Source of the DNA: a virus
Taxonomy: Duplodnaviria > Heunggongvirae > Uroviricota > Caudoviricetes
Reading direction: 5' to 3' (one strand)
DNA: 9,467 nucleotides
IMG/VR virus record: IMGVR_UViG_2695420579_000007
The stretch's first letter is position 1, and each line of letters starts with the position of its first letter. Made by a program: the position numbers and the translations under genes. The notes beneath the pieces are model-generated. The model was not told the origin of the DNA. It was given only the letters and a program-made list of their open reading frames with translations, and did not search any database. Positions 1 through 9,432 of the stretch are shown here, piece after piece.

Positions 1-162
1 AAACACTATCAATAAGTTGGAGTCATTACCAAACGGTTGAAATGTATGCCGCTACTTACGGGTCCTGTAATCCTCTGAATAAACCAGAGGGAAAAGATGA
101 TTTCGACAAAATTTACCGCTTCTTGGAGGACCGCTATATCAAAAGCTTAGAGGACGCAGGGA

Positions 163-540
163 TCAAATCCCCAGTGAAGTCACCATTGTCCTGAGAACTT
201 GCAGAACGTCATGATCATAACTTCCATCCAAACCGCGACGGCGAATTGCTTCTCGTATTACCGGAAGCAGTTCGCTGGAAATCTCGGTGCATATTTCACC
301 TGATAATACGCTTGGCTCAAGTGAGAATATTGGTGAACTTACGGTCTTGGTCTCGACAGTTTCAGAGTCAGTGCCAACATTATAAAGCTCAACGAAAGCG
401 GTCTTGATTTTCCGGGCCAGATCTTTTGCTGGCTCGCTTGCAATATCTTTCCCGATTTCTCGCAGCACAGAATGCAATGTATGAGCTGCTGTTTTCTGTA
501 CATCAGACGGTAAATCTTTAAATTCCATCGTCAGCCTCAT
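163..540 (-). CDS. hypothetical protein (125 aa; possibly 121 aa from ATG at 528), distal gene of a two-gene early-left cassette
   Basis: ORF in track. Start ATG at 540-538 overlaps the upstream stop (TGATG); an internal ATG at 528 has a better SD (GAGG about 7 nt upstream). Acidic protein with no motif I recognise. Same strand as and downstream of the OL-like operators. Confidence 0.5.
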   Translation of the reverse strand: MRLTMEFKDLPSDVQKTAAHTLHSVLREIGKDIASEPAKDLARKIKTAFVELYNVGTDSETVETKTVSSPIFSLEPSVLSGEICTEISSELLPVIREAIRRRGLDGSYDHDVLQVLRTMVTSLGI

Positions 541-746
541 CAGTCAGTGTTTCTGGCTAACCAGCAACGCGCGCCAGATTCGGTTTTAAACGTTTTGCTT
601 TTGGTATACGTCATGGCGGTAAACGTTCCATCCTGGTTAGGGAACACGCCGCACACCAGAGATTCGTTGTTGCCAAGATCGATAGTATCCATGCTGACCT
701 CATTTCCCCTTAACGCCGGGGTGGCGGAACAAAAAACCTGCTGCAT
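540..746 (-). CDS. small hypothetical protein (68 aa as drawn; more likely 50 aa from ATG at 692)
   Basis: ORF in track. ATG at 746 has a weak RBS; internal ATG at 692-690 is preceded by GAGGT with a 4-nt spacer. Stop TGA (542-540) overlaps the start of the 125-aa gene, suggesting translational coupling. No recognisable family. Confidence 0.4.
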   Translation of the reverse strand: MQQVFCSATPALRGNEVSMDTIDLGNNESLVCGVFPNQDGTFTAMTYTKSKTFKTESGARCWLARNTD

Positions 747-873
747 AGTTAAAGATTGAACCCTGCCGTCATGTTCTTACGCCTCGGGCTGGCTACTTAA
801 CCCCTGACCACTGTCTGGTAACTCGAAGTATTGCCCTGCATTCTGTGGGGCGGGGTGGGTTGACGCCTGAAAC

Positions 874-915
874 AATAGCATCATTATTTTTTTTGATGTA
901 AATAGCATCGCTATT
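874..915. promoter_or_regulatory. OL-like operator pair, probable early-left promoter region
   Basis: Two 15-bp dyads: AATAGC-ATC-ATTATT at 874-888 and the perfect dyad AATAGC-ATC-GCTATT at 901-915, 27 bp centre to centre. Same consensus (AATAGY-N3-RCTATT) as the two dyads between the divergent regulator genes at 2012-2051. Lies between the terminator and the leftward cassette. Confidence 0.5.
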
Positions 916-930
916 GTTTTTTGTTGGGGC

Positions 931-955
931 AAGAAAAAACCACCCTAAGGTGGTT
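931..955 (-). terminator. Rho-independent terminator of the regulator-antitoxin-toxin operon
   Basis: On the minus strand: stem AACCACC / GGTGGTT with a 4-nt loop (938-955), followed by a U-run (TTTTTTCTT, reverse complement of 931-939). Begins 17 nt after the toxin stop at 972. Confidence 0.55.
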
Positions 956-3915: not shown

Positions 3916-4662
3916 ATGAAAAACATTGCGGCAGCCGGGGTTCTTGAACGTATTCACAGACTTGCACCACAGGGGGCGGTTCCACCGTACCGGACGGTGG
4001 AGGAGTGGCGGGAATGGCAACTTGCTGAAGGACGAAAACGCAGCGAGGAGATTAACCGCCAGAATCGCCAGTTGCGGGTGGAAAAAATCCTGAATCGTTC
4101 GGGCATCCAGCCTCTGCACAGCAAATGCTCGTTTGCGAATTATCAGGTGCAGAACGACGGGCAAAAATACGCGCTGAGCCAGGCCAAATCCATAGCTGAC
4201 GAACTGATGACCGGGTGCACGAATTTTGTGTTCAGCGGTAAAACCGGCACCGGGAAAAATCACCTTGCAGCGGCGATGGGTAACCGGCTGATGGCGAAGG
4301 GGCGCAGCGTGATTATCGTCACCGAGTCTGATGTCATGAGCGTGTTGCATGACAGCTACGACAACGGCAAATCCGGTGAAAAATTTTTACAGGAGCTTTG
4401 CGGGGTTGATTTGCTGGTCCTGGATGAAATAGGCATTCAGCGGGAGACGAAAAACGAGCAGGTGGTATTGCACCAGATAATTGATCGCCGGACAGCATCA
4501 CTGTGCAGTGTCGGGATGTTAACAAACCTGAATCATGCCGCAATGAGCACGCTTCTTGGTGAGAGGATTATGGACCGCATGACCATGAACGGTTGTCGGT
4601 GGGTGACGTTTAACTGGGATAGCTGGCGTTCAAATGTCAGCTTTCCGGGAGTTGTGAAGTAA
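3916..4662 (+). CDS. DnaC-like helicase loader (IstB-like AAA+ ATPase), prophage replication protein, 248 aa
   Basis: Walker A (SGKTGTGKNHLAAA) and Walker B (LLVLDEIG) motifs. SD GGGGGTGA upstream of ATG 3916. Follows the O-like gene by 6 nt. Confidence 0.9.
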   Translation: MKNIAAAGVLERIHRLAPQGAVPPYRTVEEWREWQLAEGRKRSEEINRQNRQLRVEKILNRSGIQPLHSKCSFANYQVQNDGQKYALSQAKSIADELMTGCTNFVFSGKTGTGKNHLAAAMGNRLMAKGRSVIIVTESDVMSVLHDSYDNGKSGEKFLQELCGVDLLVLDEIGIQRETKNEQVVLHQIIDRRTASLCSVGMLTNLNHAAMSTLLGERIMDRMTMNGCRWVTFNWDSWRSNVSFPGVVK

Positions 4663-5424: not shown

Positions 5425-5556
5425 ATGGCAAAAGTATTTACACAGGAAGAGCGGGAAAAAATTAAGGGGCAGGTTGTTGAACTCGTACGCCAGAGTGGGC
5501 GCGAGACGTTACGACAACGCTCCGATGGAAAGCTTCTGGGGAACGCTGAAAAATGA
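5425..5556 (+). pseudogene. truncated 5' fragment of a small gene (31 native codons), fused out of frame to IS600-derived sequence
   Basis: ATG 5425; MAKVFTQEEREKIKGQVVELVRQSGRETLRQ is native up to 5518, then reads IS600 interior to a stop at 5554-5556. 5467-5518 is identical to 9052-9103, where the rest of the gene continues after the N gap. Confidence 0.6.
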
Positions 5557-5756
5557 GAGCCTGAGCCACTATCGTTTTAATAACCGGGATGAAGCCATCT
5601 CAGTAATACGGGAATACATTGAGATTTTCTACAATCGTCAGCGTCGTCACTCTCGTCTGGGGAATATCTCCCCGGCAGCCTTCAGGGAAAAATATCATCA
5701 GATGGCTGCTTAAAAAAAGAACAAATGGTAGTGTCCGCTATTGCCAGTACACCTCA
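5519..5756 (+). mobile_element. partial IS600 copy: 238-bp right-end fragment in inverted orientation relative to the complete IS600
   Basis: Exact reverse complement of 5758-5995, ending in the IS terminus ...CCTCA at 5756. Carries the last 65 codons of the transposase frame. Its inner boundary is an IS-interior position, not an IS end, so it is not a simple transposition product. Confidence 0.8.
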
Positions 5757-5800
5757 NTGAGGTGTACTGGCAATAGCGGACACTACCATTTGTTCTTTTT

Positions 5801-6619
5801 TTAAGCAGCCATCTGATGATATTTTTCCCTGAAGGCTGCCGGGGAGATATTCCCCAGACGAGAGTGACGACGCTGACGATTGTAGAAAATCTCAATGTAT
5901 TCCCGTATTACTGAGATGGCTTCATCCCGGTTATTAAAACGATAGTGGCTCAGGCTCTCATTTTTCAGCGTTCCCCAGAAGCTTTCCATCGGAGCGTTGT
6001 CGTAACAGTTACCTTTACGCGACATTGATGTTTTCAGACCAGACTGCTCCTGTATGACCCGGTAATCGTATGCGCAGTACTGTGAACCTCGATCAGAGTG
6101 GTGGATTAGCCCGGCAGGTGGGCGCTGGCTCCTGAGCGCCATAAACAGGGCTTTACCTGTCAGCTCTTTTGTCATGCGCTCTCCCATGGCGTAGCCGACA
6201 ATTTCGCACGTATAAACATCTTTGATGCCAGCGAGGTACAACCATCCCTCCTGTGTGGCAACATACGTCAGGTCCGCCACCCAGACCTGATTTGGTGCTG
6301 TAGGAGCGAACGTCTGGTTCAGCAGATTTGGCGCAACTGGCAGATTGTGGTTCGAGTTCGTAGTCGCTCTGAACTTGCGTTTCTGCTTACAGCGTAGCCT
6401 TAGCTCCTTACGAAGACGTGCCAGTCGGTCACGACCAACGATGATGCCATTCTCTGCCAGCTCCGTCTGGAGCCGCCGGGTTCCATATGTTTCGCGAGTG
6501 CGGATATGTGCCACCTTAATCTCCAGTTTTAGCCGCTCATCACTTTGTTTTCTGTCTGAGGGTTCATGCTGTACCCAGTTGTAATAACCGCTCCTGGATA
6601 CACCAAATACCTGACACAT
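5801..6619 (-). CDS. IS600 OrfB (DDE transposase catalytic domain), 272 aa as an independent ORF; expressed as OrfAB fusion by -1 frameshifting
   Basis: The OrfB frame is open upstream of ATG 6619 back through the slippery site. Frame is -1 relative to OrfA. Confidence 0.9.
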   Translation of the reverse strand: MCQVFGVSRSGYYNWVQHEPSDRKQSDERLKLEIKVAHIRTRETYGTRRLQTELAENGIIVGRDRLARLRKELRLRCKQKRKFRATTNSNHNLPVAPNLLNQTFAPTAPNQVWVADLTYVATQEGWLYLAGIKDVYTCEIVGYAMGERMTKELTGKALFMALRSQRPPAGLIHHSDRGSQYCAYDYRVIQEQSGLKTSMSRKGNCYDNAPMESFWGTLKNESLSHYRFNNRDEAISVIREYIEIFYNRQRRHSRLGNISPAAFREKYHQMAA

Positions 6620-6654: not shown

Positions 6655-6957
6655 TTAACGCGTATTTTTCAGCGACTCCTGTGCAAAATACGCTGTTGCT
6701 TTTTTTAATATATCTCGCTCAAGGCGAGCTTCATTTAACGCCTTACGCAGTTGCAGAATTTCAGATTCCAGTTCAGCCACCGTGCGGGAACCAGGAGTAC
6801 CGAGCCCTTTTCTGGCGGCGGTAACCCATTGTCCTAAAGTGCCTTCAGGAAGAGATAATCGGGAAGCGCCTTCACTGATCGAAAGTTGATTTTCAAGAAC
6901 CGTTCTGACAGCTTCGGCTTTGAACTCTTTAGAGTAACGTTGGGTTTTTCTGCTCAT
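6655..6957 (-). CDS. IS600 OrfA (IS3-family transposase N-terminal HTH protein), 100 aa
   Basis: 100-aa ORF with HTH and leucine-zipper-like C-terminus (LRKALNEARLERDILKKATAYFA). Contains the frameshift heptamer near its 3' end. Confidence 0.9.
   Translation of the reverse strand: MSRKTQRYSKEFKAEAVRTVLENQLSISEGASRLSLPEGTLGQWVTAARKGLGTPGSRTVAELESEILQLRKALNEARLERDILKKATAYFAQESLKNTR
6700..6706 (-). promoter_or_regulatory. programmed -1 ribosomal frameshift slippery heptamer (A AAA AAA, then G) of IS600
   Basis: Minus strand reads TTA AAA AAA GCA in the OrfA frame. The -1 frame is open from here into OrfB (...ILKK then SNSVFCTGVAEKYALIEQWRQQFPIEAMCQVFG...). Confidence 0.6.
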
Positions 6958-7704: not shown

Positions 7705-8451
7705 ATGAAAAATATTGCGACAGGCGGCGTTCTGGAACGCATCCGCCGACTGACCCCGCCACATGTAACCGCCCCATTCAGAACGGTAGCGGAGTGGCGC
7801 GAGTGGCAACTTGCTGAAGGCCAGAAACGTAGCGAGGAGATCAACCGCCTGAATCGCCAGTTGCGGGTGGAAAAAATTCTGAATCGCTCAGGCATCCAGC
7901 CGTTGCACCGTAAATGCTCGTTTGCGAATTACCAGGTGCAGAACGACGGCCAGCGATACGCGTTAAGCCAGGCGAAATCCATCGCCGATGAACTGATGAC
8001 CGGGTGTACAAATTTTGCGTTCAGCGGAAAACCTGGTACCGGGAAGAATCACTTAGCGGCAGCTATCGGGAATCGCCTGCTGAAAGACGGTCAGACAGTG
8101 ATTGTGGTTACCGTGGCTGATGTTATGAGCGCCCTGCACGCCAGCTATGACGACGGGCAGTCAGGCGAAAAATTTTTGCGGGAGCTGTGCGAAGTGGATC
8201 TGCTGGTTCTTGATGAAATTGGCATTCAGCGCGAGACGAAAAACGAGCAGGTGGTGCTGCACCAGATTGTTGATCGCCGGACAGCGTCGATGCGCAGCGT
8301 GGGGATGCTGACAAACCTGAACTATGAGGTGATGAAAACATTGCTCGGCGAGCGGGTGATGGATCGCATGGTCATGAACGGCGGGCGCTGGGTGAATTTT
8401 AACTGGGAGAGCTGGCGTCCGAATGTTAGCCATTCGAGGGTTGTTAAGTAG
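7705..8451 (+). CDS. DnaC-like helicase loader, second paralogue (248 aa)
   Basis: Collinear with the 3916-4662 protein at high identity (roughly 85% by eye); Walker A SGKPGTGKNHLAAA and Walker B LLVLDEIG. Confidence 0.9.
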   Translation: MKNIATGGVLERIRRLTPPHVTAPFRTVAEWREWQLAEGQKRSEEINRLNRQLRVEKILNRSGIQPLHRKCSFANYQVQNDGQRYALSQAKSIADELMTGCTNFAFSGKPGTGKNHLAAAIGNRLLKDGQTVIVVTVADVMSALHASYDDGQSGEKFLRELCEVDLLVLDEIGIQRETKNEQVVLHQIVDRRTASMRSVGMLTNLNYEVMKTLLGERVMDRMVMNGGRWVNFNWESWRPNVSHSRVVK

Positions 8452-8465
8452 TTTCAGGAGGATTT

Positions 8466-8824
8466 ATGGCGAAACCTTTTACTCCCGAACAGCGGGAAGA
8501 ACTGAAGACGCGAATTGTGGAACTCGTGCATCAGGACGGTCGGGTCACGATTCGGCAGTTGTCAGATGAAACAGGTATCAGTCGTGCGTCTGTCGGTCGC
8601 TTATGCATAGAACTGGTCGCAAGTGGTGATGTATATAATTCTGGCTACGGCTTATTCCCGTCTGAACAGGCTCGCAAGGACTGGCAAAGCGCCCGCAAAA
8701 AACTCTCGAGAGTAAAGGTGAGGAAACCGGTTGTTGTTGATCCGGACCTTATCTGGTCATTACCTGACGGAGAAATACGCCGCTACGACAGGCGCCTGAA
8801 TATAATCTGTCGCGAGTGCCGGAA
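8466..8824 (+). CDS. small HTH-like hypothetical protein, paralogue of the gene truncated at 5425; 3' end lost in the N gap
   Basis: ATG 8466 with CAGGAGGA SD. N-terminus MAKPFTPEQREELKTRIVELV. C-terminal half nearly identical to the post-gap copy (ELVASGDVYNSGYGLFPSEQARKDWQ...PDLIWSLPDGEIRRYDR...IICRECRK). Confidence 0.65.
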
Positions 8825-9051
8825 NNNNNNNNNNNNNNNNNNNNNNNNNNNNNNNNNNNNNNNNNNNNNNNNNNNNNNNNNNNNNNNNNNNNNNNNNNNN
8901 NNNNNNNNNNNNNNNNNNNNNNNNNNNNNNNNNNNNNNNNNNNNNNNNNNNNNNNNNNNNNNNNNNNNNNNNNNNNNNNNNNNNNNNNNNNNNNNNNNNN
9001 NNNNNNNNNNNNNNNNNNNNNNNNNNNNNNNNNNNNNNNNNNNNNNNNNNN
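8825..9051. other. assembly gap (227 N)
   Basis: Run of n characters. The flanks are two near-identical gene copies, so this looks like a repeat-induced scaffold break. Confidence 1.
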
Positions 9052-9432
9052 GGGCAGGTTGTTGAACTCGTACGCCAGAGTGGGCGCGAGACGTTACGAC
9101 AACTGGAAGCTAAAACCGGGGCGACAAGATATTTAATAAGCGTTCTCGCCAGAGAGCTGGTTGCCAGTGGGGATGTATACAACTCTGGCTACGGGTTATT
9201 CCCGTCTGAACAGGCTCGTAAGGACTGGCAAAACGCCCGCAAAAAACTCTCGAGGGCAAAGCTGAAGAAACCATCTGTGGTTGATCCGGACCTTATCTGG
9301 TCATTACCGGACGGAGAAATACGCCGCTACGACAGACATCAGAACATAATCTGTCGCGAGTGCCGGAAGAGTGAAGTTATGCAGCGTGTACCGGCTTTCT
9401 ATCAGGGTGATTTTCAGGAGGCGGTACTGTGA
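9052..9432 (+). CDS. 3' portion of the small HTH-like gene whose 5' end is at 5425-5518; partial because the 5' end falls in the gap
   Basis: 9052-9103 is identical to 5467-5518 and the frame continues (GQVVELVRQSGRETLRQLEAKTGATRYLISVLARELVASGDVYNSG...) to TGA at 9430-9432. Confidence 0.6.
   Translation, partial: GQVVELVRQSGRETLRQLEAKTGATRYLISVLARELVASGDVYNSGYGLFPSEQARKDWQNARKKLSRAKLKKPSVVDPDLIWSLPDGEIRRYDRHQNIICRECRKSEVMQRVPAFYQGDFQEAVL

Follow-up and report, generated by a model that had tools for sequence, protein, structure and literature searches.

Probable dicBF-type early-left operon, interrupted by IS1, in the immunity region of a lambdoid prophage

The early-left region described here very probably represents the beginning of a leftward early operon of the dicBF type. 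We analysed a stretch of 9,467 nt (the window), which its sequence identifies as the part of a lambdoid prophage that carries immunity and replication genes, within an IS-rich genome of the E. coli/Shigella type. Positions 163-930 are, with high confidence from comparison with relatives, the operator-promoter, the leader and the first two cistrons of the dicBF-type operon of a lambdoid prophage of the Rac/Qin/CP-933P class. The locus is a decapitated remnant of that early-left operon, and its content is ordinary for the early-left region of a lambdoid prophage and not a new kind of system. The explanation we favour as a whole, namely the operon assignment taken together with its proposed regulation and with roles of the two encoded proteins as accessory binders, is probable.

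To the right of this segment, on the minus strand, lies an operon belonging to the paaR-paaA-parE type (972-1976), with a RefSeq-annotated counterpart at a 98% identical locus. It consists of an HTH repressor gene at 1476-1976 (Pfam HTH_3, 35.7 bits), a PaaA2-type antitoxin gene at 1262-1456 (Pfam PaaA2, 81.9 bits) and a ParE toxin gene at 972-1262 (Pfam ParE_toxin, 64.1 bits), and its regulator is the presumed ligand of the left and right operators (OL and OR). An intrinsic terminator at 931-957 on the minus strand, predicted from a hairpin (-15.1 kcal/mol, z -3.3) with a U-run behind it, appears to close this repressor-antitoxin-toxin operon and so to insulate the leftward promoter PL from it. 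To the right of the repressor there are a cro/YdaS-like gene and a gene of the YdaT family (Pfam YdaT_toxin, 36.9 bits), and the divergent regulatory region between the repressor and the cro-like gene occupies about 1980-2090. This arrangement is like that of prophage CP-933P of O157:H7, in which an HTH regulator, a PaaA2 antitoxin and a ParE toxin are likewise followed by a leftward promoter, the left operators repeat those of the divergent PRM/PR region, and YdaS- and YdaT-like genes lie to the right. The promoter of CP-933P, PL933P, is located downstream of parE2, has the operators OL1-3 and is repressed by PaaR2 and YdaS; it has been tested experimentally and is the analogue of the candidate PL in the window (PMC8630535). 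The two prophages differ in the operator sequence, with 18-bp GTTTAGTAA-type repeats in CP-933P and AATAG-N5-CTATT in the window, and in the number of left operators, which is three in CP-933P whereas two recognisable ones are predicted in the window.

A pattern search of the window for AATAG-N5-CTATT, allowing at most one mismatch, found four sites in 9.5 kb where 0.20 are expected, and none of 200 shuffles reached four. The four sites fall exactly in two regulatory gaps. One pair, OL1 at 874-888 (AATAGCATCATTATT) and OL2 at 901-915 (AATAGCATCGCTATT), each a 15-bp palindrome, is placed between the ParE terminator and ydfA, the first gene of the leftward operon; the other pair (2012-2026 and 2037-2051) lies between the repressor and cro-like genes, where an additional weaker right operator site occurs at 1989-2003. 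The left pair is accompanied, directly upstream of ydfA, by promoter-like hexamers, which form a candidate PL analogue at 872-902 on the minus strand: a -35 element TTTACA (902-897) overlapped by OL2, and a -10 element TATTGT (877-872) overlapped by OL1 and preceded by a TG (880-879), giving the extended -10 sequence TGcTATTGT (880-872). A sequence-only reading had placed two small genes in the early-left (PL) slot behind an OL-like operator pair, and both points are upheld, as the pair in front of ydfA repeats the type of the OR sites. In the alignment, the PL spacer measures 19 nt in the window versus 17 nt in strain RMDEC465, and the spacing of the left operators is 27 bp versus 25 bp in RMDEC465, that of OR being 25 bp. 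Because of these differences from RMDEC465, PL may be weakened, or else the A-run at 887-894 may have been miscalled.

From the sequence we infer the promoter, the transcription start and the repressor binding, and the regulation may be pictured as follows. The CI-like HTH repressor (1476-1976) would bind OL2 over the -35 element and OL1 over the extended -10 element, and since it would thus cover both parts of PL, the operon is proposed to be silent in the lysogen. Relief of repression would allow RNA polymerase to read a leader of about 173 nt, then ydfA and then gene 2. Silencing by the resident repressor and expression of ydfA and gene 2 ahead of the rest would be in keeping with the experiments on Qin and CP-933P, from which they are extrapolated.

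The 5' leader of the early-left transcript is located by alignments at 693-865 on the minus strand, with a putative start. Its core of 117 nt (746-862) is nearly invariant between different immunity types, and the ydfA-proximal segment of about 45 nt (693-735), which carries the Shine-Dalgarno sequence, is conserved as well. The core is present in 3693 of 5426 E. coli genomes (68%); in Rac it is 93% identical and sits, unannotated, between racR and ydaG. The leader sequence also includes TCTTTAAC, which we take to be the rrn boxA consensus core. An Rfam search of the leader gave no match, its folding is no better than that of shuffles (MFE z +0.8 and +1.3), no rut-like tract (extended, C-rich and G-poor) is found past the first ~25 nt, and the hairpin ahead of the ydfA Shine-Dalgarno sequence is not significant. 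Two open reading frames of this region were rejected, namely a 13-codon leader ORF, whose ATG reads ACG in phage Evi and in RMDEC465, and a 51-aa ORF at 777..932, which is spurious, with no family match and a start upstream of the promoter.

The first cistron, at 540-692 on the minus strand, is identified by profile matches as the gene of the 50-aa protein YdfA (DUF1391). It scores 98.9 bits against PF07151 (cut-off 27.3), covering profile positions 1-47 of 48, it matches phrog_751 with an E-value of 1e-35, and its nearest relatives in RefSeq carry the annotation ydfA or DUF1391. The sequence-only reading could name no family for either gene, which holds for gene 2, without a named family, and not for this one. 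The start is the ATG at 692 (MDTIDLG...), with a GAGG Shine-Dalgarno sequence upstream. The longer form of 68 aa (ORF 540..746), in which the DUF1391 match covers residues 20-66, was rejected because K-12, BL21, E7-1N7 and mEp460 do not retain its ATG at 746. As had been described, the protein contains several cysteines, two in the 50-aa form (pI 5.05) and three in the 68-aa form. Members of the family occur only in Escherichia, Shigella and Salmonella and are at least 78% identical throughout, and the protein must be strongly constrained, because dN/dS stays at 0.03-0.18 despite dS values of 1.0-1.5 at most.

As in Qin, ydfA is promoter-proximal and the first ORF past the leader; published work on the dicBF operon places it next to the promoter (PMC10448788, PMC5069750), which is dicBp, and DicA represses transcription from there (PMC10448788). 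Papers up to 2024 assign no function to ydfA, ydfB or ydfC (PMC5069750, PMC11430063), and the Rac paralogue ydaF is likewise uncharacterised (PMC11014345). When ydfABC-ydfD of K-12 were induced from Plac with dicF and dicB deleted, growth, viability and morphology were normal (PMC5069750), so that YdfA does not act as a toxin or inhibitor of division at the level of expression reached; the result concerns the K-12 protein, about 86% identical to the window copy, and not gene 2. An "ydfA" reported from IncI plasmids (PMC12111858) is an unrelated gene sharing the name. Structure prediction, which the sequence-only reading had proposed for both proteins, gave a fold for YdfA: the AlphaFold model is beta-beta-beta-alpha with a mean pLDDT of 80, the block means being 83-94 over residues 11-50. 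Comparison of YdfA by hhalign with other beta-beta-beta-alpha domains, those of AP2, lambda Int-N (integrase arm-binding) and YegP (UPF0339, DUF1508), gave no support for a relationship.

The second cistron, gene 2, at 163-528 on the minus strand, encodes a 121-aa phage protein which matches phrog_33007 over its full length (E 4e-80, positions 1-121 of 121). Its start is the ATG at 528 (MEFKDLP...), with GAGG 6 nt upstream, and M1 is nearly invariant among 63 family representatives; the alternative ORF 163..540 would give 125 aa. The stop codon of ydfA (542-540) overlaps the alternative ATG at 540-538 by one base and lies 11 nt before the ATG at 528, so the two genes are tightly coupled; both minus-strand ORFs, of 50-68 and 121-125 aa, are thus present as the sequence-only reading had described them, including the acidic character of the second product (pI 5.16, net charge -5). 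Three parts are predicted in the protein: a helical hairpin at the N-terminus (residues 1-52), a disordered linker of acidic character (53-84) and, at the C-terminus, a domain of two helices (85-121). Its AF2 model is poor (mean pLDDT 57.5); the hairpin helices 8-25 and 32-51 reach about 73 and are followed by an acidic disordered stretch (54-82) and two C-terminal helices. Among the copies from E. coli, Salmonella and Enterobacter, the N-domain has a dN/dS of 0.2-0.4 and the C-domain one of 0.06-0.24, against 0.7-1.3 for the linker, which indicates two constrained domains joined by a free, neutrally evolving linker. These substitution patterns show ydfA and gene 2 to be real protein genes under purifying selection.

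The N-terminal part of gene 2 reaches beyond its own family. Residues 1-52, with the motif MEFKDLPxxVQxxAAxTLxxxL...EPAKxLARxIxxAFxELY, are the only part in common with other PHROGs (phrog_9419, 1363, 2151 and 6937), and the N-domain occurs in ~94 representative clusters (E up to 1e-3); in the alignments, the C-terminal parts of the family variants are unrelated to one another. No match to gene 2 was obtained in Pfam, NCBIfam, PADLOC or PDB by sequence or profile, its homologues are exclusively "hypothetical protein" entries and show no domain fusions, and a fold search of BFVD with the poor AF2 model returned only members of its own family. A relationship as a distant YdfB or YdfC paralogue was rejected by hhalign. 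The description of the cassette as unannotatable does not hold, because 99% identical annotated DNA exists in E. coli B/BL21(DE3) and also in phage mEp460_ev081: window positions 31-560 (ydfA, gene 2 and a convergent 66-aa gene) are 99% identical to hypothetical genes in BL21(DE3) and REL606, 393 of 5426 complete E. coli genomes contain this segment, and mEp460_ev081, a viable phage, carries a copy with 97.7% identity. Since gene 2 is essentially absent from plasmids, the many plasmid matches of the cassette search would stem from the IS1 end of the window.

That end, at positions 1-30, is an exact match (30/30) to the terminal 30 bp of the annotated IS1A of K-12, and homology to intact relatives begins at position 31, so that the early-left operon ends at IS1, 132 bp past gene 2. 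The insertion also took the promoter and the first 16 codons of the convergent 66-aa gene, whose 3' 50 codons and stop remain at 42-194 on the plus strand (phrog_34441, E 6e-36, profile positions 17-66 of 66) and share 32 nt with the 3' end of gene 2. In E. coli, Salmonella and Enterobacter the 66-aa gene is found complete alongside gene 2, and its dN/dS is about 0.2. Both the IS1 that cuts the operon and the convergent gene had escaped the sequence-only reading. In the 99% identical relatives BL21, E7-1N7 and mEp460_ev081 the order is repressor, ydfA, gene 2, convergent 66-aa gene and DicF (Rfam, 53-77 bits), followed by dicB, ydfD/DUF1482, exonuclease, xis and int, and transcription in these intact relatives would run antisense through the 66-aa gene into that tail. 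The genes dicF and dicB, present there, are absent from the window because IS1 interrupts it at position 30. Every one of the seven gene 2 family variants examined is overlapped in its variable 3' part by a convergent ORF; these ORFs are mutually non-homologous, and three of them are in PHROGs.

The small genes of the early-left region vary greatly among prophages. They are ydfA-ydfB-ydfC in Qin and also in RMDEC465, whose immunity region is that of the window; ydaG-ydaF with sieB convergent in Rac; ydfA-gene 2 in the window, BL21 and mEp460; ydfB-gene 2 in Salmonella, where the ydfB ORF is uncalled; and gene 2 alone, directly after an S24 repressor, in Enterobacter. Other gene 2 family variants form the first gene in Serratia and others, and phage Evi carries a 118-aa gene, ydfC and then a 135-aa gene 2 family member. 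The shuffling of ydfA, ydfB, ydfC, ydaG and gene 2 among these loci shows that each is an accessory module of its own, and that ydfA and gene 2 do not constitute a two-component system. The functional pair that the sequence-only reading had in mind is thereby contradicted, since ydfA occurs with ydfB-ydfC instead and gene 2 with ydfB or alone (Salmonella, Enterobacter); nor do ydfA and gene 2 show the obligate co-occurrence of a type II toxin-antitoxin system or a match to a toxin-antitoxin family.

Among characterised operons, Qin dicBF (dicBp-ydfA-ydfB-ydfC-dicF-dicB-ydfD) has a leftward repressor-controlled promoter (PMC10448788), to which the candidate PL of the window would correspond, and shares with the window ydfA as the first cistron, a small acidic second gene tightly coupled to ydfA, and the dicF-dicB-ydfD tail, which is present in the relatives 99% identical to the window. 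However, the window has gene 2 and the convergent 66-aa gene in place of ydfB and ydfC, its immunity is of the paaR-paaA-parE type and not dicA/dicC, it possesses the long conserved leader core which Qin lacks, and its operon is cut by IS1 ahead of dicF/dicB. The Rac prophage (racR, leader, ydaG, ydaF, sieB, kilS, kilR) has in common with the window the leader core, a DUF1391 gene (ydaF) and a convergent gene that runs into the end of the final small cistron. It differs by having ydaG ahead of the DUF1391 gene and no member of the gene 2 family, and its convergent gene encodes the membrane protein SieB, whereas that of the window encodes a soluble 66-aa protein.

As to function, we tentatively take ydfA and gene 2 to encode non-toxic accessory early proteins acting by binding another macromolecule, a proposal which may be right but to which we attach only limited confidence. 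YdfA would work as a compact beta-beta-beta-alpha domain, and gene 2 as an adaptor, whose N-terminal helical hairpin would dock on a common partner while the exchangeable C-terminal domain would give specificity. Such roles would group both proteins with the small PL-operon modulators DicB, Kil, cIII, Gam and Ral. A more specific version, which we consider unlikely, is that YdfA and/or gene 2 are anti-defence or host-takeover effectors inhibiting a specific host protein early in lytic growth. Their neighbours in related prophages include the small PL-operon effectors dicB, kilR and gam, and the conserved N-domain and hypervariable C-terminus of gene 2, often seen in arms-race proteins, together with its neutral linker between two constrained domains, would suit such effectors. 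Neither protein, however, is similar to characterised inhibitors, and the high identity and low dN/dS of YdfA are unlike an arms-race pattern.

That the first PL cistron or cistrons and the conserved leader serve to make early-left transcription processive, as an analogue of N/nut or put, is distinctly improbable. The position agrees with it, as ydfA and gene 2 occupy the place of N in N-less prophages, and so do the retention of the leader core in 68% of E. coli genomes and the presence of TCTTTAAC within the leader. On the other hand, the leader core, ydfA and gene 2 each occur independently: phage Evi possesses the core but no ydfA, the reverse holds for K-12 Qin, BL21 and mEp460, and Enterobacter has gene 2 alone. 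The folding and Rfam results for the leader and the hhalign comparisons of YdfA likewise speak against it. Likeness to the lambda N/PL operon is in position alone, the first genes following a leftward promoter, a candidate one in the window, with operators beside the immunity region. Unlike N, the window proteins lack an arginine-rich motif (their N-termini are MDTIDLGNNE and MEFKDLPSDV) and any sequence similarity to it, both are acidic or neutral, a fold is predicted for YdfA, and nothing resembling boxB was recognised in the window. The sequence-only reading was right on this point, and in hmmscan searches of Pfam (E up to 0.1 or 10), NCBIfam and PADLOC (both E up to 0.1) neither protein matched N, KilR (PF27398), DicB, Kil or SieB.

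Hardly more credible is a pair for exclusion and escape, in which the 66-aa gene would be a moron expressed in the lysogen, acting in exclusion or abortive infection from the slot of Rac sieB, and the C-domain of gene 2 would neutralise it during the lytic growth of the prophage. The model for such a pair is the neutralisation of sieB by esc. It agrees with the convergent ORF found over the variable 3' part in seven of seven family variants, with ORFs that are non-homologous and in three cases in PHROGs, with the convergence of Rac sieB on ydaF at the same position, and with the constraint on the 66-aa gene itself. However, the co-variation is trivially explained by the physical overlap of two reading frames, some of the convergent ORFs may be chance ORFs, and the 66-aa protein has neither a membrane segment (GRAVY -0.68) nor a PADLOC match. 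The least probable reading, to which we give very little credence, is that of a toxin, a cell-division inhibitor or a toxin-antitoxin-like pair, as the sequence-only reading had suggested, because the ydfABC-ydfD induction in K-12 was neither toxic nor filamenting and so contradicts the idea for YdfA (PMC5069750), ydfA and gene 2 are not obligately linked, neither has a Pfam or PADLOC match to a toxin, antitoxin, Kil or DicB, and laboratory B strains of E. coli still carry the cassette without rearrangement, although the genes are small and coupled and DicB/Kil-type inhibitors lie nearby in related prophages. None of these four alternatives has positive evidence beyond position.

Returning to the accessory-binder proposal, a far-reaching extension of it would regard the MEFKDLP-domain proteins as an undescribed but widespread class of lambdoid early-left effectors, in which the N-terminal hairpin would attach to a shared partner and the C-terminal "warhead", exchanged between members, would always come with a small convergent gene expressed in the lysogen. 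We rate this as a long shot; if true, an example would be an esc-like self-immunity domain matched to an exclusion or abortive-infection moron in the Rac sieB slot. The value of the present analysis lies mainly in annotation, which resolves positions 163-930 into the PL/OL region, ydfA and a hypothetical gene of phrog_33007 belonging to an IS1-decapitated dicBF-type operon. Of the two genes, ydfA is found in most E. coli genomes under very strong purifying selection, and the family of gene 2, unnamed but catalogued, often provides the first early-left gene in prophages of Enterobacterales. While it would overturn nothing current, a binding partner of either protein would fill a modest gap in lambdoid phage biology.

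Directly downstream of the inferred start of the leftward early promoter PL lies a 117-nt leader core (746-862, minus strand), which is near-invariant among the window, Evi, Tritos and Rac, prophages with differing operators and first genes. Among 5426 complete genomes of E. coli, 3693 carry it, and not even the K-12 copy, situated between racR and ydaG, is annotated. The leader core has no match in Rfam, and its folding energy shows no excess.

The PL of the window has a 19-nt spacer, and the two operators that overlap it, OL1 and OL2, are 27 bp apart from centre to centre. In the locus of RMDEC465, which is otherwise 98% identical, the A-run (887-894 in the window, inside 881-896) is 2 nt shorter, giving a 17-nt spacer and a 25-bp operator spacing, and the right operators of the window are likewise 25 bp apart. 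The longer A-run is either a promoter-down or phasing mutation, or a homopolymer sequencing error. A promoter-like match (TTGACG and CATTAT, 16 nt apart; 860-887, plus strand) overlaps OL1 and is directed rightward into the ParE terminator; since three such sites were found in the region scanned and 3.7 were expected, it probably arose by chance.

As for the small early-left genes of relatives, an uncalled 42-aa ydfB homologue was seen in the Salmonella locus L013 (4861-4989), between the repressor and gene 2. It is joined directly to the conserved leader and Shine-Dalgarno sequence of ydfA, the first cistron of the early-left operon in the window, and the arrangement looks as if a precise deletion had removed ydfA. 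YdaG of Rac (44 aa; L017, 2313-2447) matches the UBA-like Pfam domain UBA_4 with 24.2 bits against a gathering threshold of 21.8.

Regarding the window itself, positions 1-30 match the terminal 30 bp of IS1 exactly, and we infer that this end is the source of the many plasmid and multi-copy matches to the 1-560 query. A perfect 249-nt inverted repeat (5508-6006), flanking a single N within IS3-family transposase sequence (orfA, 6655-6957; orfB, 5801-6619; domains HTH_Tnp_1 and rve), has the appearance of an artefact of assembly or masking. Two DnaC/IstB-like replication genes (3916-4662 and 7705-8451) are 84% identical across 300 nt, further segments are duplicated at 8606-8824 and 9150-9368, and an N-run covers about 8820-9050. 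These duplications suggest either that two prophage replication modules are linked via IS elements or that the assembly is collapsed or chimeric.

At its 3' end, gene 2 is overlapped by a convergent gene (42-194, plus strand) for a 66-aa soluble protein of phrog_34441, with dN/dS of about 0.2, which also occurs in L004 (4964-5164), L011 (5335-5535) and L013 (5335-5535). In Rac the equivalent slot is filled by SieB. Some convergent overlapping ORF stands at the equivalent place in all gene-2-family variants examined, and the ORFs of different variants are mutually non-homologous.
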